From IMG/VR virus record IMGVR_UViG_3300026549_000043, positions 64,001-128,000 of that record: 64,000 bases of DNA. One strand, given 5' to 3'. The stretch is from a virus (lineage: Duplodnaviria > Caudoviricetes). This document shows positions 27,210 to 37,179 of this stretch, piece by piece. The translations under genes and the position numbers were made by a program. The notes beneath the pieces were generated by a model. The model was not told the origin of the DNA and did no database searches. It was given only the letters and a program-made list of their open reading frames with translations. How positions within the stretch are numbered: position 1 is the stretch's first letter; the number at the start of each line of letters is the position of its first letter.

Positions 27210-30200
27210 ATGAATAATATTTTAACTGAGGCCATCGGCGAAGATGGTTTAAACTTCAGAGATATTTATAATAATTTAATGGAATCAACACATAATTTTA
27301 CTGAAGAATCTGGTGATTTTAAATTTGATTCTAGTTTCGAAGCTAGCTTAGCTGAGAATATTTTAAAGGATAAATATTCAGAAGTTGAAATTAAACCATT
27401 AGACATGGATGACGAAAATGAATTATTTTATACAGTACTTTATAAAGATCCTATTATTAAAGAGGATTATAAAGATTTAGATTTTCAAGATAATAAAAAT
27501 CCTGAGGGTACTCCATTAGGTAGTTTTGGTGAATCATTACTTTCTGAAGGACAGAAACCAGCCCATTGGGCAGTTATTAAATCTTCAGGTGGTAGAGGTA
27601 AAAATGGTTGGATAACTAATATCTCTGTTGAGGCTATTCCAAGTGAAATTAAAGACATGAATAGCCTTAAAGGATTTAGTACTTGGGGACCTAATAATCA
27701 ACATGTATCAAATAGATATAAGGCTGATTCTCTAGGTATATTTTCAACCAAAAAAGAGGCTCTAGAAAAAGTAAAAGAATTATTACGTAAAGAGCCTAAC
27801 TATAGAGCCTTTGGAACCAACGCTGAAGAAGTAGAATTACTCGAAAAAATTATTAAGTTTGGCTCTAAATGGCAGGTGCAATCTGAGAAAGGTAAAAATA
27901 TGGGAACTTATAATACTAAAAAAGAAGCCGAAGACAGATTAAAACAGGTAGAATATTTTAAACATATAAATGAAGGTATTTTTAGTAATATTGGTAAAAC
28001 CGCAAAAATAGCTATGTTAGCTAAATGGGTTTCTAATCATGCTGATAAGGTTCAATATTGCTCTAAAAGGGATCAAGATCGCATATTAGAATTATTTAAT
28101 GATATTAAACAGTATTCTAAGAATATTGACATTTTTGATAATACTGAATTTGAAGATGGCGCTGTTGAAGATATTTTAGGCAAAATTGAAGACTGCTATG
28201 AAGATATAAAGGATATTATTAAAAATTCACAAATACATGAAAGTTTTGATTCTGATACTGTAGAAATTTCTTCAAAAATAAAAAATATTAATAATAAGAT
28301 TATTTCACTTTTAAATGGAAGTGATTTAATAAATGAAGACCGTAAGTCAGATATTGAATCTACCCTTTTAGATGGTGAACCTACTTTCGCTGAATATATG
28401 GAAGATAATTATGGCATTGATATCTATGATGATGAAATTGCCGAGAACCCTGATGTAGAAGATCATTACTTAAATGAGTATGAAAGCTATTTAGATCATT
28501 TATATGATTTAGATGATGAAAGTAATTATGATGCAGCCCACGCTGCTGAGTGGATGGAAAGATATCCTCATGGTTACTATAATAATGAGAATGACTATTG
28601 CGTTGATGATGAAGATGGTAGCCCAGATATTGATTTTGAAGAAGACGATGTTGACCCAGATCAATTCTTACAGGCTTACGAGTTAACTAAAGACATGGAC
28701 GAAGATGAAGCTTGGGAATCTATTTCTCAAAGATTCGATAAGGAAAAAGATCTTGGATTCTGGGGACCAGATGAAGCTGAAAGAGGTAAACATGAGGTAT
28801 TTGATTACTGGAAAGAAATTTCTTTAAAGGAAGACTTTGATCCAGAAGATCTTGTTATTGAATGTCCTCAATGTTTAAATGATTTAACTTTTGTTGGCTA
28901 TCAGGGTGATTTAATTGAATTTAAATGTGATAGCTGTGAAAATTATTTCTATATGGATCCTAATACTAAAGAATTACTTTCACCTACTGAACTAGATAAA
29001 AGATATTTAACCGAATCTACCAATGATCTTTATTATTTTAAGATTACAGGCCCAGTAAGAAAGCAGCGTGGGTGGTCTCCTGATGATGAACCTACAGTCT
29101 TTGTAACTGGAATCTGTGATGAATTAAAGGGTAGCAGAGGTTTTAGAGATGGTACTCACGAATTCCGTGAAAGTGATTTAGAACGTGTTGGAGCTAAGGT
29201 CGGTGATACCGTAGCCTGTCATGTTGATTGGGAAACAGATTATGATGGTCATCTAGAGTTAGAAGTAGACGTAGTCAAAAAAGTAGATGAAGTTTTAAAA
29301 GAAGCTAAGAATAAGAATTATAGAGTAGAGCTTTATTATTATGACAATAATAAACCTGACGATGTAATTTATTTCGAAAATACAAAAGCAGCTTATAATT
29401 TCTGTAATAATAAAATTTCAGATAATGCAGATTATGATGATGGCCTTACTGGTATTTTAGTATTTAATGAGGCTAAAGATAAATTATTAAATACCTGGCA
29501 AAATGGTAGCCGAGGATGGGAAAATAAATCTAAGGCATTAACTGAAGAAGTAAACTTACAGCCTGGAGACGTTAAGTGGTCTTGGTGGCTTCATAGATAT
29601 TTAATTTATAAGGGGTTTGATAAATTTTCAAATAAATATGAGTTTGAGGACTTTGGAGATGATTTATTTGACCTTACGGCAGAAGAAGTTTCAAAATTAA
29701 AGGATAAATATGTTAGTAAAAATGAATCTTTAGATGAAGCAAAGACTCAAGAGTATGAGTATACACTTTATAACACGTTTTCAAAGAATTCGTTCCATAA
29801 GAAAGTAAAGTGCTCTTCTAAAGAAGAAGCAAAGAAGATCGCTGATGATGAGTTAAAGAAACTCCAAAAGAATGGACACTTTAAAGACTTTGTTGTTAAA
29901 GGTGTAAAAGAGCTACAAGAGTCTTTAGATGAAGCCAAAAACGATACACTTAATGCTGACATCTGAGATGAAAATAATGAATTAAGACCTGAAGTTAGAG
30001 AAAAATTAAATTTAATTGTAGAAAAATTTAAAGATAATTTATCTGAAGATGGCGTAGATCTAGATATATCAGATATTATTATAGTAGGATCTAACGCTAA
30101 TTATAATTATACTGACAAATCAGATATTGATTTACATATTATAGCTAACTTAGATATTTATAAAGATAAAGAAGATTTAGCAAAAATTGTGTATAATGCT

Positions 30201-30329
30201 TATAGGCGTTTGTTTAATGATAAATTCGACCCTACCATAAGAGGGCATGAGGTTGAGTTGTTTGTAGAGTCGAATGAGGATGATAATGATAATAATATTC
30301 CTGATGAGGTAGAAAATAACGAAGAATAG
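27210..30329 (+). CDS. large acidic mosaic late protein with C-terminal pol-beta-type nucleotidyltransferase N-half (1039 aa)
   Basis: reads through TGA 29964 into GSNANYNYTDKSDIDLH; many (L/I)xE motifs; CPQC..CDSC Zn ribbon. Confidence 0.75.
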
Positions 30330-30345
30330 CAATAAGGAGAAGGAT

Positions 30346-31098
30346 ATGAAGGTTAATAAAATTACCAAAAATATTTCTGAATCAACATCTAATTCAAACG
30401 GAATTTATTCTTTAAATACTGGGTGGGTAAAGAAACCAGTAAAGGATGATATTCCAGAAGTAGATTTAGAACCTGATTTAACTGAGTGAAGAGACAGGGC
30501 CAAGAGCTGTAATTCTTTAGAAGATATAAATAGTTTTATAGATGATATTTATATCTTAAGACAGAATTCCATTATGAATGATGGAGAATATGGAAAAGGG
30601 AACTTGATTTTTAAAGAAATTAGAAATGAAGGCATATTACAAGAATTGAAAGATAAAAAGGTTAATTTAGAAAATAACGAAATGAGTATAAAAGAAGGAT
30701 TAAAAGATTTTTCTAATGATGTAATTGAAAAACTACTTACTAAATATTCAGATTGTTCAAAGGATGAATTAGATGATGTCTGGGATGAGATCGTAAGAGA
30801 TTATAACGATACTGATTTAGCTGATGAAGTATGTGAATTATTAGATATTAGACTTGATGATTTATATAGTGAATCATTAAAACCTATAAAAGAAGAACCA
30901 TTAGATTATAATGAAAGTGATATTTTTAAACAAAAAAATGAAGCCTGTATCAAAGAATATAGGCAGTGAGCTGGATTATCTGATGATGAATTAATCACTG
31001 AGGATAAAATAAATGAATGAGCTTTAAACCGTGTAAGCTGTAATAATAATTATGATTATAATGATTTAAAAGAAGTATTATGCGGTAATAATAAATAA
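30346..31098 (+). CDS. putative C-half of phage nucleotidyltransferase (three TGA=Trp)
   Basis: AGGAG RBS; SNGIYSL..GWVKKP and GEYGKGNLIFKEIRN. Confidence 0.65.
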
Positions 31099-31123: not shown

Positions 31124-32200
31124 ATGAAATTAAAGGTTAAGAGACCAAAGAAATTGGTAGAATCAACTATTAATGAAGCTACCCTAGAAGATACTATTAA
31201 CGCTGCTGAAAAACAAATTGAAAACCCAGAAGTAGCTAGTTATAATTCTACTGGCCAGATTGAACAGGCTTTAGATAGAGCCCTCAAGGTTGCTGAGAGA
31301 ATGAAAAGAACTGGTGGTAATAACTATACTAATGTTTTACTTATTGGTGGTGCTGGTACTGGTAAAACTTCAGCAGTAAGAGACTGAGCTGCAGCTCATA
31401 ATATCAACTTAGTTATGCAAAACACTTCAACAATGGATGAAACAGACCTTACAGGTGTAGTAGCTAGAAGTGCTGAAGGAAACTCAACGGTTAAATTAAG
31501 ATCCGACGTTTTAAGAGGATTGAATGAACCTAGATCAGTATTATTTTTAGATGAATATAATAGAGGTAGAAGCTCAGTTAGAGGAACATTATTAACTTTA
31601 ATTAATGACCATTTAATTGATACTGGTACAGACCAGGAATCAAATATTAAGGGATTATCTGGTAAATTAGAATTAAAGAATATGTTATTTACCATTGCTG
31701 CTATTAACCCGGCTTCAGGTGAATATACTACAGATGAATTAGACCCTGCCGAAATTTCTCGTTTTAGAAGAATTGAAGTTAAGGCTGATAAAAAACATCT
31801 ATTAAATAATGTTTTAATTCCAAAGCTTACAAAACAGGCAGAAAATGGTACTGAAGAAGACCAGGAAATTATTGCCGGACAGATTAACCTAGCAACTAAG
31901 CTTTTATCTGATAAATCATTCCAGTTTGATAATGAAGAAGAAGAAAGACTTGGTTATCAGAAATTCGGAAGAGATTATACTCCATTAAGTCCAAGATCAT
32001 TTACTAACTTATTACAGGCTACAGATGGTACTAAGGAAGATTTCTTGTATTTATATAATGATTATTGTAACCCAATGAAAAAGATGACAATGGAAACAAT
32101 CTTATCTGATTATGAAGATATAGATGATAAAGCTAATTCTGTATTTAAAAAGAGAGAGAAATCAGCCGAAGAAAAATTAGACGATTTTCTAAATATGTAG
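31124..32200 (+). CDS. MoxR-like AAA+ ATPase
   Basis: GGAGTGKT Walker A, VRD[W]AA read-through at 31385, LFLDEYNR Walker B, AAIN, LDPAEISRF, SPRS. Confidence 0.88.
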
Positions 32201-32218
32201 TAAGGTAGGTGTTAACTT

Positions 32219-32815
32219 ATGGCAATGACCGAACGTGAGCGCCTAGGTAGAGATGTACTTATAAGATCATTAAGTAAACATGGATATGTAACTTATGGTA
32301 AATTATTAAGTAATTTCCATTTAAATTTTACTCATGACCCATCAGTTTTAGGTTATATGGAACCAAAGGCTGGAAGGATAGTTGTTAACTCAAGCCTTGA
32401 TATGGATCAAGTAGAAGTAATCATTAGACATGAAATTTTACACTTTTATTTAAACCATGCAGATAGAAGTTTGAAGAAGTTGGCATCATTAAAAGGAATT
32501 GATCCAAATAATATTGATGATATGACAGTCAAAGAATTAGAAAAAGAAATCTATGGTGATGCCGAGCAAACAGCTAACTGGGCAGCAGATTTTGATATTT
32601 CTAATCAAGGGTATACTGATAAAGATAAACAAATTATTAGAACCTTACATGGTTTAGTTACTGAAGACCACCATTCAGATTGGGTTGATTTGTCTATGGA
32701 AGAGATGTATGAAAAACTATTAAACGAAAGAAAAAATAAACAAAAGATAGTTTATGGTGCTTTCTTTAATCCAACTACATTTATAAGTCAGGATGGTAAA
32801 ATATATGGCAAATAG
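32219..32815 (+). CDS. putative metallopeptidase (DUF2201 N-terminal-like)
   Basis: HEILH, ANWAADFDI, LSMEEMYE. Confidence 0.75.
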   Translation: MAMTERERLGRDVLIRSLSKHGYVTYGKLLSNFHLNFTHDPSVLGYMEPKAGRIVVNSSLDMDQVEVIIRHEILHFYLNHADRSLKKLASLKGIDPNNIDDMTVKELEKEIYGDAEQTANWAADFDISNQGYTDKDKQIIRTLHGLVTEDHHSDWVDLSMEEMYEKLLNERKNKQKIVYGAFFNPTTFISQDGKIYGK

Positions 32816-33461
32816 ATTAGTAGAAAAAAGAGTTCATGGAAGATTTGTAAATGGAGTATTTGTTGATCATGACGGAAATCCAATTCCATTAGAACTTTCA
32901 AATATTGGATCTCAAGGGGGTAGTAATTCTCCAAGCAATAATAATCCTGATAATAATATCCCAGTTGATTCTGACGAAAATACTTTAGGTAATTCTAATT
33001 ACCAGTCTTCTGAGGGTGAGTCTAATGATGGAGATGAATCATCTCAAGATTCAAATAATAATCCTAGTAATGGTTCTAATTCTCAAAAACCAGGCCAGTC
33101 CTCTACAAATGGTAGTCAGCCATCTGAAGAAGAATCTGATTCTAATGATTCGAATTCTTCAAGCAGTAATTCATCTTCAGATGATTCAAGTGAGGATGAA
33201 GGTGATTCAAGTAGTAGTCAATCTGATAATAGTAAATCAGGTGATGATTCAACCAATGATTCAAGTGGATCTAGTTCTAGTCAAGAAAATTCTTCTAGCG
33301 ACCAATCTGATGATGACGATGACCAATCAGATGATGGATCTAACATGATGCCAAACATGAGTGAAAAAGAATCACCTGATCCAAATGCCATTTATGTAGA
33401 TCTTAATACTAATTTCCGTTATAAATGGAATGGAGAGGAGTTTGAGAAACTTGAAGACTAA
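32805..33461 (+). CDS. Ser/Asp/Asn-rich linker protein with short structured ends
   Basis: low-complexity centre flanked by two short aromatic motifs. Confidence 0.7.
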   Translation: MANRLVEKRVHGRFVNGVFVDHDGNPIPLELSNIGSQGGSNSPSNNNPDNNIPVDSDENTLGNSNYQSSEGESNDGDESSQDSNNNPSNGSNSQKPGQSSTNGSQPSEEESDSNDSNSSSSNSSSDDSSEDEGDSSSSQSDNSKSGDDSTNDSSGSSSSQENSSSDQSDDDDDQSDDGSNMMPNMSEKESPDPNAIYVDLNTNFRYKWNGEEFEKLED

Positions 33462-34344
33462 TTTGTTAGAAGAATTAAACGTATACATCGATGATGATAC
33501 AGGCGATGAATACGTCTATGATGGTAATAGGTTAATAAAAATAAAAGTTGGTTCACCTAAGGGTATTGGTGACAAAGGTGATGAAGATATCCAAGCTCAG
33601 GAAGAAATAGAAAGAGCTAAGGAAGCAGCTGAAGGCGGAGTACTAGAAACTAAGGATGAATTAGAAGCTAGAGTTAAAAAATTAGAAGACGCTTTAAATG
33701 ATGAAGAAGTTGCTAAAGAAATTACCAATGAGACAAATGAACATGTTGCTAGAGAAAAGATCAAAAAAGAACTAGACCGTTCAGAAAGAGAATTAAAACA
33801 ATTTAGAAATGATCCAATTGTTCAATTTGAAGGATCATTAAATCATTTTATTAGGAAACAAATAAAATTAGCTTCTGAACAAACCTACTCTAGATTAAAT
33901 AAAAGATATGAAGGAACTGGGTTAATCAGGAAGGGCGTAAAGAAATTTGAAAGCCCTGAAATACCTTTAGTAAATGTTTATTTTGATAGATCTGGTTCTT
34001 GGGATGAAGATAAAACTAAAGTAGGTAGACAGGCTTTAGCTACTTTAGAAAAATATATCAGAACTGGAAAATTAAAGGTAGCCATAAAATATTTTAATGA
34101 TAAGGTATTTGATACTTATATCCCAAACGGAATGGGAGGTACTTATGGCTCACCAATTCTGGCTGACATTTTAGCTACTAAACCAGATAACGTTATTGTT
34201 ATGACTGACTCAGACATCAGTGATTGTCAGGAATTTGTTCAAGTACCAGGTGTTGTTTGGTATTTATTTAAAGGTGGAGTTTCTGAAAATTTAAGAAGCC
34301 ATTTAACTGGTAAAGTAGCAACAGAATCTTATAATTTAGATTAA
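33451..34344 (+). CDS. vWA-domain protein (DUF2201 C-terminal-like)
   Basis: TYSRLNKR, YFDRSGS MIDAS, GGT, VIVMTD; probable TTG start after GGAG. Confidence 0.8.
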   Translation: MKTNLLEELNVYIDDDTGDEYVYDGNRLIKIKVGSPKGIGDKGDEDIQAQEEIERAKEAAEGGVLETKDELEARVKKLEDALNDEEVAKEITNETNEHVAREKIKKELDRSERELKQFRNDPIVQFEGSLNHFIRKQIKLASEQTYSRLNKRYEGTGLIRKGVKKFESPEIPLVNVYFDRSGSWDEDKTKVGRQALATLEKYIRTGKLKVAIKYFNDKVFDTYIPNGMGGTYGSPILADILATKPDNVIVMTDSDISDCQEFVQVPGVVWYLFKGGVSENLRSHLTGKVATESYNLD

Positions 34345-34355
34345 GAGGTAATTAG

Positions 34356-34883
34356 ATGGAATTAGATAAAAATTATGTAAAAACTGAAATACTAACAATT
34401 CCAGGTTTAAGAGAAAAAATTAGAGAAAATAAATATGACGAAGTATTTGATCTATGTAAAAGTACAGCTAAAAAAAGACAGCTAGCTGCCTCATTATACT
34501 TCGCCAAGGTTGATTTTCTAAAGTATATGACTAGAATACCAGATAGTTTGTTTAGAGAAATGGAAAATATGACTAGTATCACTATTCCAGGTAATATAAA
34601 AGAGATCGGTGATTTAGCCTTTTTTGGAACAGGACTTGAAGAAGTTAAATTTGAAGAAGGTCTCGAAAAAATTGGTAAGGGAGCCTTTTCTCAGACAAAA
34701 ATTAAAGAGGTACATTTACCAAAATCTGTTAAAGAACTAGGCCAAAGTGCTCTAGGTAAGGCTGTAGTATATTGTTTTTTAACTTCAGATAAAGTTATGG
34801 GACCTGAATTTAATTTTGGCCAGTTTACAGCAAATGATGTAATAAACCAGGAAACTGGGGAATTAGTTAAGGAACGTCGCTAA
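34356..34883 (+). CDS. BspA-type leucine-rich repeat protein
   Basis: ITIPGNIKEIGDLAF, IGKGAF, LPKSVKELG. Confidence 0.75.
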   Translation: MELDKNYVKTEILTIPGLREKIRENKYDEVFDLCKSTAKKRQLAASLYFAKVDFLKYMTRIPDSLFREMENMTSITIPGNIKEIGDLAFFGTGLEEVKFEEGLEKIGKGAFSQTKIKEVHLPKSVKELGQSALGKAVVYCFLTSDKVMGPEFNFGQFTANDVINQETGELVKERR

Positions 34884-34911
34884 ATTTATATATAATATAA
34901 AGAGGTAAAAC

Positions 34912-36828
34912 ATGAATAAAGAAGTTTTAAAAATGTTTTTAAACGAGGATTTAAATACTGAGGAATTAAACGAAGCTTTACCTAAGGCATTGGCCAACGC
35001 TTATAAGAATTCAGGTTTAGATCTCAAACAGAGAAAGAATATGAATCCTTATAATATAGTTGACAAGATAGATTTTCAGAATGCTCAGTATGATGAAATA
35101 TCCCCTGATGAAGGAAAAGAAGTTTGGAAGGATGACCCTCAATCATTGATTCTAGTAATTACTGGAGCTGATGGTAATGATCATGCCGTAAAATTCAGAA
35201 AAGATGGCAAGGTAGATATTGACCCAAATTATGGTAACTATAGATTTGATTTACCAAGAGATAAGGCCTATGTTAAGAGAGATGGTACTAGAGTAGTAGA
35301 TGTATTTAAGGCAAAGATCAATCATCTTTTGAGTATAGCTAAAAAGATCTATAAATCAAATGAACATTTGGTTAAAAAAGATCAAGACTTACTTGATACT
35401 AGAAAACAAAATCCAGAATCTCCTAGAAATACTGATTTAGATAAACGTAATATTATTTCTGATGCACAAGATGCAGGAAGAAAATCTCTAGTTTTATTAA
35501 ATAAATTAAAGGATCCATATGGTGTTTTTGGAAGAAATAGAGCTCTTAAATTAATCCCAGATGAAATTAAATATGACGAGGATACTGGAAAATCAACTTG
35601 GGTATCAAGCTATGGTGGAACTCATTCTGCTGATGAGTGGAAGTCTATGTTTATAGACTATTTCAACAGATGGGGATCAGCAGATTACGATACTTTTAAT
35701 ACATGGTTGGCTTATTTATTAGCTGTCCAAAAAGGTGATAGAACCTATCGTAACCCTACCGAAAAAGAAATCAAAGACTGGTATAATCTTAGTGATAACT
35801 GGAGAAAAGATGCTAAAGCTAAAATTAGATATCTAGATGCAGAACGTGCTCTAAGAGAACCTAAGGATAGAGTAACTAAGGCTATCCACGATGCTAAACA
35901 GCTAGAATATCAATTAAAGAATTCTCAAAGTAATAAAGATTCATTTATTTCTCCAGAAAGAAGAGCTAGCAGAGAAGCTGATATTACTTGGTATATTAAT
36001 AGATATAAATCACGTTTAATGGATATCCTAAAAGAATTAGAAGAATATGAAATGAGACTTGATGATTTAGATGCTGAAGATGCTAAGAAGGTTAAAGAGT
36101 TTGATGATGAAATAGCTGATTTAACTAAAAAGATCGCTGATGCAAAACAGGAGTATACAAACACTATGAATAATGGGGCTTATACAAATTCTGCTTTCGG
36201 TAGAAAGGTACCAGAAAGTTTACAGGAAGAAAAATCATTAGATGAATTGGTTGATATCCTTGCTAACAGACGTAGCCAGAATGAAGATCTAACTGAAGAT
36301 TTCACTGATGATGAAAGAAAGTTAGCTTTAGCTGAATATTTAAATATTGATCCAGAAGAAGTAGATGAATTAGATAGATTTGATTTTGATACACCAGAAG
36401 GTGAATATTTAGTTCTCACCGAAGAGGAAGGCTATGACAGGGCTATGGATGAGGTAAAGATGACCTTAGATGATTTAGGTTTAGAGGCCTTTACTCCTAA
36501 TTTCCAGAAAGAAATTTTAGATAATTATATTAAGGATGATGTCATTGATTCTTTCATCGATGATGAAATTGAATATTTCGAAACACAAGAAAATGATCCA
36601 GAACAGTTAGAATATCTTAGAAGCTTAGATACAAAGGAATCTAAATTAGATTATATTAGAGATATCTTTGGAGACTTATCCGATTTTATCGATAGTAGAG
36701 AAGCCTTAGATGAAGATGAAGTAGCAAGAGCTGCCGTTGATACTGATGGAGTTGCTCATTTCATCGCTTATTACGATGGTGAGGAAAATGAATTAGGTAA
36801 TGGCTATTTTGCTTACCGTATAAATTAA
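34912..36828 (+). CDS. acidic/coiled-coil late protein, possible internal head protein
   Basis: follows the GCTAAATT motif; FLNE, LNEA, ESLQEE, LTED. Confidence 0.65.
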   Translation: MNKEVLKMFLNEDLNTEELNEALPKALANAYKNSGLDLKQRKNMNPYNIVDKIDFQNAQYDEISPDEGKEVWKDDPQSLILVITGADGNDHAVKFRKDGKVDIDPNYGNYRFDLPRDKAYVKRDGTRVVDVFKAKINHLLSIAKKIYKSNEHLVKKDQDLLDTRKQNPESPRNTDLDKRNIISDAQDAGRKSLVLLNKLKDPYGVFGRNRALKLIPDEIKYDEDTGKSTWVSSYGGTHSADEWKSMFIDYFNRWGSADYDTFNTWLAYLLAVQKGDRTYRNPTEKEIKDWYNLSDNWRKDAKAKIRYLDAERALREPKDRVTKAIHDAKQLEYQLKNSQSNKDSFISPERRASREADITWYINRYKSRLMDILKELEEYEMRLDDLDAEDAKKVKEFDDEIADLTKKIADAKQEYTNTMNNGAYTNSAFGRKVPESLQEEKSLDELVDILANRRSQNEDLTEDFTDDERKLALAEYLNIDPEEVDELDRFDFDTPEGEYLVLTEEEGYDRAMDEVKMTLDDLGLEAFTPNFQKEILDNYIKDDVIDSFIDDEIEYFETQENDPEQLEYLRSLDTKESKLDYIRDIFGDLSDFIDSREALDEDEVARAAVDTDGVAHFIAYYDGEENELGNGYFAYRIN

Positions 36829-36843
36829 GGAGAATTAAATATT

Positions 36844-37179
36844 ATGATTATTAATGGAATTGATGTTACCCCAATTATTACAGCTATCATCGAAGTATTA
36901 GCCGGAGTAGTAATTACTTTAATTTCTACTAAAGTTATCCCTTATATCCATTCAAAGGTAGATCAGGAACAGCTTGAGTTTATTAAATCAGTAGTTAAAA
37001 TTGCAGTTAAGGCTGCTGAGCAATTATTTGAAAAGGCTCAGGGTGCTGAAAAACTTGAATATGCCATGAATATGGTTTTATCTGCTTTAAAAGAAAAGGG
37101 TATTGAAATTAATAAGGATTTATTAAGAAGTTATATCGAGGCTGCAGTTTTAGAATTACATAGAGCTTTGGAGGATTAA
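36844..37179 (+). CDS. phage holin (LL-H-like)
   Basis: N-terminal TM; AVKAAEQ..GAEK..IEAAV. Confidence 0.75.
   Translation: MIINGIDVTPIITAIIEVLAGVVITLISTKVIPYIHSKVDQEQLEFIKSVVKIAVKAAEQLFEKAQGAEKLEYAMNMVLSALKEKGIEINKDLLRSYIEAAVLELHRALED

Follow-up and report, generated by a model that had tools for sequence, protein, structure and literature searches.

Short terminal motifs of two classes at the breaks of a phage MoxR-associated peptidase-vWA cofactor encoded as three proteins

We analysed a 64,000-nucleotide stretch of DNA (the window), corresponding to bases 64001-128000 of the 139,874-bp virus record IMGVR_UViG_3300026549_000043 (CheckV estimate, 83% complete). In this window an ATPase of the MoxR class is followed by three genes for the parts of its cofactor, i.e. 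an HExxH metallopeptidase, a low-complexity middle protein and a von Willebrand factor A (vWA) protein, and the facing ends of the three cofactor proteins carry short motifs that are predicted to serve as docking modules. The window is AT-rich (~31% G+C) and its plus strand carries nearly all long open reading frames (ORFs). The features of the locus are listed below in window coordinates, with E values for the motifs taken from hidden Markov models (HMMs).

31124-32200, plus strand: MoxR-class AAA+ ATPase, 358 aa (AAA_5, phrog_1297)
31124-31162, plus strand: N-terminal leader of the ATPase, ending in L-x-E
31346-31369, plus strand: Walker A of the ATPase, residues 75-82
31541-31555, plus strand: Walker B of the ATPase, residues 140-144
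32219-32815, plus strand: stand-alone HExxH metallopeptidase, 198 aa (phrog_1314 positions 29-150, E = 1e-6)
32429-32443, plus strand: HExxH (HEILH) of the peptidase, residues 71-75
32744-32812, plus strand: class A motif at the peptidase C-end, its last 23 residues, ending one residue past a conserved Tyr-Gly (HMM E = 4e-15)
32805-33461, plus strand: middle ('linker' or adaptor) protein, 218 aa, or 222 aa from the ATG at 32793
32826-32891, plus strand: class A' motif at the middle N-end (HMM E = 3e-11), with L-x-E before it at 32817-32825
33375-33458, plus strand: class B' motif at the middle C-end (HMM E = 3e-19)
33430-34344, plus strand: stand-alone vWA protein, 304 aa (phrog_1314 positions 161-377, E = 1e-10)
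33478-33546, plus strand: class B motif at the vWA N-end, after a disordered leader ending in L-x-E (33430-33474)
33565-33579, plus strand: IGDxG motif of the vWA protein, start of the part common to fused forms
33985-33999, plus strand: DxSxS of the metal ion-dependent adhesion site (MIDAS) of the vWA protein
34201-34215, plus strand: MTDSD motif of the vWA protein

The ATPase matched Pfam AAA_5 (47.5 bits; cut-off, 22) and phrog_1297 (E = 4e-19), and we class it as MoxR-type by its AAA+ core together with the adjoining gene for a vWA/MIDAS cofactor; a hexameric remodelling activity is putative. Wherever upstream DNA is present in related loci, the order ATPase, peptidase, (middle), vWA is kept. 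A single profile of 394 positions, phrog_1314, covers both the peptidase and the vWA protein, and given that the two match complementary stretches of it, they are halves of one usual protein. Both fall under the curated Pfam cut-offs, the peptidase with 17.8 bits for DUF2201_N (cut-off, 23.2) and the vWA protein with 14.9 bits for DUF2201 (cut-off, 26.4). Within the family, DUF2201_N matched 26 of 67 members and DUF2201 17 of 67 (E ≤ 1e-3; best values 2e-10 and 6e-7, respectively), and the window proteins are a divergent phage branch of the DUF2201_N plus DUF2201 kind. The MIDAS of the vWA protein is complete, with D186, S188, S190, T238, D260 and D262 invariant in 35 split vWA proteins. Relatives found by phmmer numbered 473 for the vWA protein, and the database held 111 stand-alone homologues of the peptidase (108-347 aa). 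The middle protein matched no family in Pfam or PHROG. Its central 153 residues are 65% Ser, Asn and Asp, and conservation is seen at the two ends only, where alone its homologues (P0005-P0007 and the middle proteins of three-gene loci; loci and proteins are cited by our numbers, prefixed L and P) can be aligned; its length in relatives ranges from 117 to 306 aa.

The source of the window is a T4-like phage. The record encodes a prohead protease of the gp21 family (Peptidase_S77, 28.5 bits against a cut-off of 27; genome 134322-134648) and a gp23-like capsid protein, and the window itself both topoisomerase II subunits, a UvsX-like recombinase, a tail fibre and an endolysin-like peptidase. GenBank phages gave no DNA match to the window, and the vWA protein had no tblastn match in 50,697 GenBank phage records; the ATPase shared just 26-34% identity with GenBank phage proteins, these being from Vibrio, Ralstonia and Burkholderia jumbo phages. 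Codon usage and alignment indicate that TGA encodes Trp in this phage. Plus-strand ORFs of the window contain 44 in-frame TGA versus 237 TGG codons, and codon 88 of the ATPase, a TGA (31385-31387), falls at a position where nine standard-code relatives have an invariant Trp. Translation table 11 breaks the ATPase into two ORFs, whereas table 4 gives one gene of 358 codons. The coordinates given by an earlier reading of the letters alone (hereafter the sequence-only reading) are amended here in one respect, namely that the ATPase is a single gene only if TGA is Trp. The only tRNAs encoded in the whole 140-kb record are tRNA-Trp(CCA) and tRNA-Gln(TTG). Since no UCA suppressor tRNA is encoded anywhere in it, TGA decoding must be supplied by the host, presumably a code-4 host.

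The sequence-only reading had taken the three cofactor parts for separate overlapping ORFs. Under table 4 the locus indeed comprises four plus-strand genes, of which those for the peptidase, middle and vWA proteins each use a frame of their own, with overlaps of 11-23 nt and 32 nt. The same three genes were found in L056, an independent metagenome contig 99% identical to the window, in further metagenome contigs of 84% and 70% identity, and in two IMG/VR relatives (70% and 62% identity) with middle proteins of 283 and ~292 aa, one of which differs in frame relation. For a wider comparison, IMG/VR loci, metagenome loci, two loci obtained by exact protein look-up and the window were pooled into a set of 103 non-redundant loci; 42 were two-gene, 15 three-gene and 11 fused, the remainder being cut by a contig end or unresolved. 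Three-gene loci occur in standard-code phages (L007, L012, L013, L019, L137, L138, L141) and in TGA-recoded phages, and in L136, a TAG-recoded relative, the peptidase stands alone and the gene after it was truncated by its caller at 152 codons. The module is thus found under three genetic codes, and relatives keep the split, which the sequence-only reading had named as a point to check. The L136 peptidase (L136:3501-4594, on a 113-kb contig) translates only when TAG is read as Gln.

Frame offsets of 0, 1 and 2 were all seen at both junctions, with stop-to-start distances from -35 to +23 nt. Because frame offsets and spacing vary and independent loci keep the split, both sequencing error and a programmed frameshift are excluded. 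Programmed ribosomal frameshifting was rejected since neither junction has a fixed frame relation. Sequencing error, which the sequence-only reading had itself raised as a way in which the split might prove spurious, was rejected since the split is kept in the 99%-identical independent contig and in at least 15 non-redundant three-gene loci.

Similarity between the ends of the three proteins was evaluated by local alignment against 2000 shuffles. Within the window, the peptidase C-end resembled the middle N-end (p = 0.0015, z = 5.1) and the middle C-end resembled the vWA N-end (p = 0.0035, z = 3.7), and none of the four cross pairs was significant. Comparison of family profiles by hhalign gave 95% for A versus A' (E = 4e-8) and 97.6% for B' versus B (E = 4e-12). 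As cross-class comparisons reached at most 1.3%, the two motif classes are distinct, and the earlier observation that facing ends are alike and that the two pairs differ from each other holds at the level of the family. An HMM built from 35 vWA N-ends recovered middle C-ends (window E = 2e-3) with 0 false positives among 971 proteins, and the reciprocal HMM from middle C-ends matched dozens of vWA N-ends; B' and B were similar in 7 of 7 three-gene loci tested (p = 0.0005-0.055). Most of the 111 stand-alone peptidases share one terminal motif that stops one residue after Tyr-Gly, and 39 distinct peptidase tails fit the selection pattern and align as one family. In two-gene loci, class A' was also detected where the upstream protein ends, and P0114 has it at an internal position. 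Scanning the four isolated motifs against Pfam revealed no family at E values up to 10, and the charges of the motif pairs showed no consistent pattern of complementarity.

Class B residues Y19, D21, T24, G25 and Y28 are at least 90% conserved in the 35 split vWA proteins, which are 28-64% identical, so that conservation of the motif is on par with that of the MIDAS residues. No locus-specific similarity between B' and B was detected, the mean score being 37.1 within lineages and 37.0 between them. Together with the MIDAS-like conservation, this argues for selection and not recent duplication, and B' and B appear to be old, separately maintained subfamilies. These data also bear on the explanation that the motif pairs are passive relics of gene fission, such as a duplicated boundary, with an inconsequential split, or that the split is an artefact of frameshifting or read-through. 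Fission by duplication and degeneration would leave facing ends alike, as is seen here, and adjacent genes are in frame with a single stop between them in L007, L008 and L013. However, motif residues are near-invariant across proteins of ~30% identity and B' and B lack the locus-specific similarity just mentioned; moreover, the segment is absent from fused relatives, frames and spacing vary, and many independent assemblies are split. We regard a passive or artefactual origin as very improbable.

The motifs are strictly tied to chain breaks. When 72 junctions were scored with HMMs of the class found in the window (hairpin class), both sides matched at 29, the N-side only at 2 and the C-side only at 0, and 41 matched on neither side; the peptidase tails of the two N-side-only junctions appear degenerate. 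The sequence-only reading had suggested examining whether fused homologues lack the motifs. Of 69 non-redundant fused homologues, 68 gave no hairpin-class match, and the single exception, P0114, carries the motifs in cis. In agreement, phmmer alignments of vWA proteins with fused forms begin only past the motif, at the conserved IGDxG. Close relatives that differ in state show the same: the fused L027 (648 aa) is close to the three-gene L019 and the split P0110, and the fused L016 to the two-gene L017, and in these sister pairs the split member has extra elements flanking each break and the fused member none.

Fused and split forms are intermixed in a tree of the vWA core (FastTree, 170 rows). 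The starred branches of this tree alone force at least 13 fused/split changes, and several well-supported sister pairs differ in state, a pattern that would fit recombinational cassette exchange better than repeated de novo invention. Some split loci are without hairpin-class motifs, namely L017, L021, L053, L055 and a large distant clade (peptidases, ~385 aa; vWA proteins, ~600 aa). In these, the peptidase C-end and the vWA N-end each bear conserved helix-loop-helix elements. A short helix motif was confined to the C-terminal 40 residues of stand-alone peptidases and the N-terminal 31 residues of vWA proteins of the hairpin-less type, and was absent from 58 fused representatives. Some split lineages have helical ends in place of hairpins, a second flavour of putative connector that fused forms likewise lack. 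The presence of a shorter helix motif on both sides in L055, L053 and L017 is anecdotal.

AlphaFold2 (AF2) modelled the vWA protein with a mean predicted local distance difference test score (pLDDT) of 82.5, and Foldseek returned as best match, with a weak E value of 5e-3, the VWA domain of NorD in complex with NorQ. The class B motif forms in this model an exposed three-stranded beta-meander ahead of the vWA core (strands 18-20, 27-30 and 35-39; pLDDT ~80), preceded by 14 disordered residues. A complex prediction for the full vWA protein and the last 47 residues of the middle protein, run with alignments and without controls, gave values of the interface score ipSAE (0.00-0.01) below the mark, a result that weighs neither for nor against binding.

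Non-covalent docking of the terminal modules is the best explanation of these data and is probably correct, binding itself being predicted from the sequences. Fission of the cofactor gene would have turned one chain, consisting of HExxH peptidase, disordered linker and MIDAS-bearing vWA domain, into three proteins ending in modules of ~22-30 residues, the predicted beta-meanders A/A' and B'/B. Docking of these modules would rebuild a peptidase-tether-vWA assembly on the ATPase ring. Contact with the ring or the substrate would fall to the vWA domain, and the remodelled substrate would be cleaved by the peptidase on its tether. This enzymatic logic is borrowed by analogy from other MoxR-vWA systems such as NorQ/NorD, and which modules bind each other may follow either of two schemes, A with A' and B' with B, or A-class with B-class. 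An improbable alternative is that the motifs bind a common third partner (the MoxR ring, the substrate or a head-core component) and recruit the proteins independently. MoxR cofactors do contact the ring through vWA-associated elements, as the Foldseek match to NorD-NorQ recalls, and the ATPase, middle and vWA proteins share a common leader pattern; yet a third partner leaves unexplained why motifs occur only at breaks and on both sides of them, and why fused proteins with the same type of ATPase do without them.

Several observations weigh against the docking explanation. Pairwise similarity of A and A' was significant only in the window lineage, and in the distant two-gene clade the two helical ends showed no significant resemblance (hhalign, 0.9%). 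Seven two-gene loci (L008, L009, L020, L082, L128, L139 and L140) have as their sole modules an A-class C-end facing a B-class N-end, and in P0114 A' and B lie in cis ~15 residues apart. The AF2 model of P0114, for which the hairpins were misplaced in the input alignment, has a pLDDT of 40-68 over both motifs and showed no packing. In L141 the middle protein (L141:2648-3001) has just 117 aa, consisting of A', ~45 residues and B', and could close on itself rather than bridge its neighbours. Finally, MoxR and vWA genes of phage 0305phi8-36 lie in a deletable island (PMC3357382). The juxtaposition of A'-type and B-type modules in two-gene and cis forms means that 'like pairs with like' is not the whole rule, and, if the modules dock at all, that A-class must be able to pair with B-class. 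Of the two orthogonal docking pairs proposed in the sequence-only reading, what stands is that two distinct classes flank the breaks; a strict partition into A/A' and B'/B does not accommodate the two-gene loci and P0114. The L141 form further implies that the conserved job of the middle protein is to carry two modules and not to be a linker. The long low-complexity tract of L141 sits in its vWA protein.

These forms would fit a scheme in which docking is heterotypic, each joint being a small domain to which one A-class and one B-class module contribute a half each, much like the cis form. For three-gene loci this would mean that A joins B' and the A' of the middle protein joins the B of the vWA protein, or that the middle protein closes on itself and the peptidase docks directly on the vWA protein; partners in three-gene loci could also be the facing ends. 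Besides the seven two-gene loci and P0114, this scheme draws on the subtypes involved: the upstream C-ends of the seven loci are of the A' subtype (18-36 bits with the middle-N-end HMM), and the vWA N-ends of five of the seven score about equally as B or B'. The middle protein, moreover, always has one module of each class, and that of L141 little beyond these two. On the other hand, three-gene order sets like beside like, which a further split of the two-gene form does not predict, the A subtype of peptidases is distinct from A', and the P0114 model is of low confidence. We consider heterotypic docking a tentative possibility.

A rival proposal, put forward in the sequence-only reading, is that facing ends dock homotypically (A/A' and B'/B) in a linear chain and that the proteins, marked by leaders ending in Leu-x-Glu (LxE), are packaged in the capsid and reassembled after injection. 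For the docking part it can be noted that facing ends share a profile class and that the classes are distinct, and against it that A-class stands beside B-class in the two-gene and cis forms. For the packaging part, the leader pattern noticed on the ATPase, middle and vWA proteins is indeed present and is conserved in relatives. In nearly all related loci the ATPase opens with a Lys-rich leader, after which come (L/I)-x-Glu and, in most cases, Ala or Ser; a similar leader directly precedes the motif in hairpin-type vWA proteins and most middle proteins. Genome-wide, (L/I)xE starts at residues 3-12 in 37 of 174 ORFs (21%; background, 12% per 10-residue window; p = 4e-4); it is found in 7 of 14 ORFs between 27 and 40 kb of the window, and a putative N-terminal piece of the capsid protein (genome 136036-136260) opens with such a leader. 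The record also encodes the T4-type prohead protease and the gp23-like capsid protein described above. In T4, gp21 cuts behind Glu, ITE-6 and LTE-619 of Alt being two such sites, and internal proteins reach the head by means of a capsid-targeting sequence at their N-terminus (PMC5694885, PMC3012670). One virion preparation of a jumbo phage yielded a MoxR-like ATPase, a finding that its authors call unconfirmed (PMC10638138).

Other observations point away from packaging. The peptidase has no LxE leader, the N-terminal tripeptide is also borne by topoisomerase and UvsX, and LxE is short and common in an AT-rich proteome. P0114 retains an internal LxE before its B motif, and LxE before B may therefore belong to the module and not mark a site of cleavage. 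Capsid packaging via the leaders is circumstantial and speculative, and we consider it rather unlikely; homotypic docking in a linear chain combined with packaging is unlikely.

The fused form of the module has been described. Jumbo phages of group 2.2 (T4-related) encode a MoxR ATPase with a fused metallopeptidase-vWA cofactor, which Iyer et al. (2021, PMC7824862) proposed to act in virion assembly and proteolytic processing. That module (PHROG 1297/1314; DUF2201_N plus DUF2201) has the same order, from ATPase to cofactor, and the same domains, and likewise belongs to T4-like phages, but its cofactor is one chain, whereas the window encodes three proteins with added terminal modules that score below both Pfam gathering cut-offs. 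The split three-gene form is a variant of this published module. The sequence-only reading was aware of no description of the arrangement, and our literature search likewise found no paper on the split form or its terminal modules. The cellular MoxR-vWA pairs NorQ/NorD, CbbQ/CbbO and RavA/ViaA likewise combine an AAA+ ring with an adjacent vWA/MIDAS adaptor, but their adaptors are single chains without a peptidase, and their sequence similarity to the window is marginal. T4 internal head proteins, which are packaged and cleaved (PMC3012670, PMC5694885), have a short N-terminal leader that the candidate leaders ending in (L/I)-x-Glu resemble, and gp21- and gp23-type genes are present here; packaging and cleavage of the present proteins are putative, and the peptidase is without the leader.

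A functional parallel to the terminal modules is offered by the docking domains of polyketide and non-ribosomal peptide synthases. There, short matched elements at C- and N-ends restore the order of the chain, and helical and beta-hairpin classes of them exist that are interchangeable in evolution. The synthases are unrelated proteins of unrelated organisms without sequence similarity to those studied here, and their docking domains flank catalytic modules, whereas the elements of the window flank a disordered tether. Split inteins likewise have short complementary pieces at facing ends. A split intein was considered and rejected, as the motifs have 22-30 residues, far fewer than intein halves, and no conserved Cys/Ser/Thr nucleophile or His-Asn junction.

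Downstream of the vWA gene, 34356-36828 encodes a BspA-type leucine-rich repeat (LRR) protein (LRR_5, 175 aa, 64 bits) and a 638-aa protein without a family. Distant relatives also have an LRR_5 gene after the vWA gene, in three tandem copies in L141, and in most a protein of 350-560 aa follows the LRR gene or genes (L055, L136-L138, L140, L141). The LRR and large-protein genes may belong to the module, for example as binders of substrates or targets. Directly after them, 36844-37179 encodes a holin (Phage_holin_6_1 family, 65.9 bits). Upstream of the module, 27210-31098 holds another apparently split gene: of the 247 positions of profile phrog_36119, positions 15-135 match the C-end of a 1039-aa ORF and positions 130-245 the start of the next ORF (30346-31098). 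The 1039-aa ORF has a weak Pfam NTP_transf_2 match (residues 938-995), and its tail is visible only with TGA read through.

Elsewhere in the record, the gp23-like capsid gene appears interrupted (genome 136036-139874 and 1-1256; L050:1-2570, L051:1-2708). The 74-aa ORF at genome 136036-136260 was assigned to the N-terminal part of this gene by visual inspection alone. It is followed by two ORFs, one of which resembles a GIY-YIG homing endonuclease (137805-138542), and the gp23-like ORF begins at 138805 and is truncated by the end of the contig. A nearly identical copy of its start is present at genome 78-1256, so either the contig ends overlap or two paralogues exist. Among relatives of the peptidase, P0164, a 77%-identical stand-alone protein on a contig of up to 154 kb, bears the NCBI label of a Methanobrevibacter metagenome-assembled genome; binning has probably assigned a phage contig to the wrong organism here.

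Gene fission with purpose-built connectors is well known in giant synthases and not in phage proteins. With at least 13 well-supported fused/split changes and at least two connector types, the module described here amounts to a natural experiment on how working proteins can be cut. In its furthest extension, which we regard as a long shot, the A and B motifs would be a new family of tiny (22-30 residue), natural and mutually specific connectors that phages reshuffle to build a chaperone-protease out of parts encoded separately, free 'extender' proteins among them; in T4-like phages the leaders would target these parts to the capsid, and the machine carried there would reassemble in the new host, for example against its defence. 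If the terminal modules bind, they would be compact and possibly orthogonal connectors for protein engineering. The split form is also an entry point to the study of the MoxR-peptidase-vWA module, which is widespread in phages, a phage MoxR gene having been tied by one published screen to overcoming defence: the MoxR gene of phage Bas54 is needed to overcome a defence system (PMC13716836).

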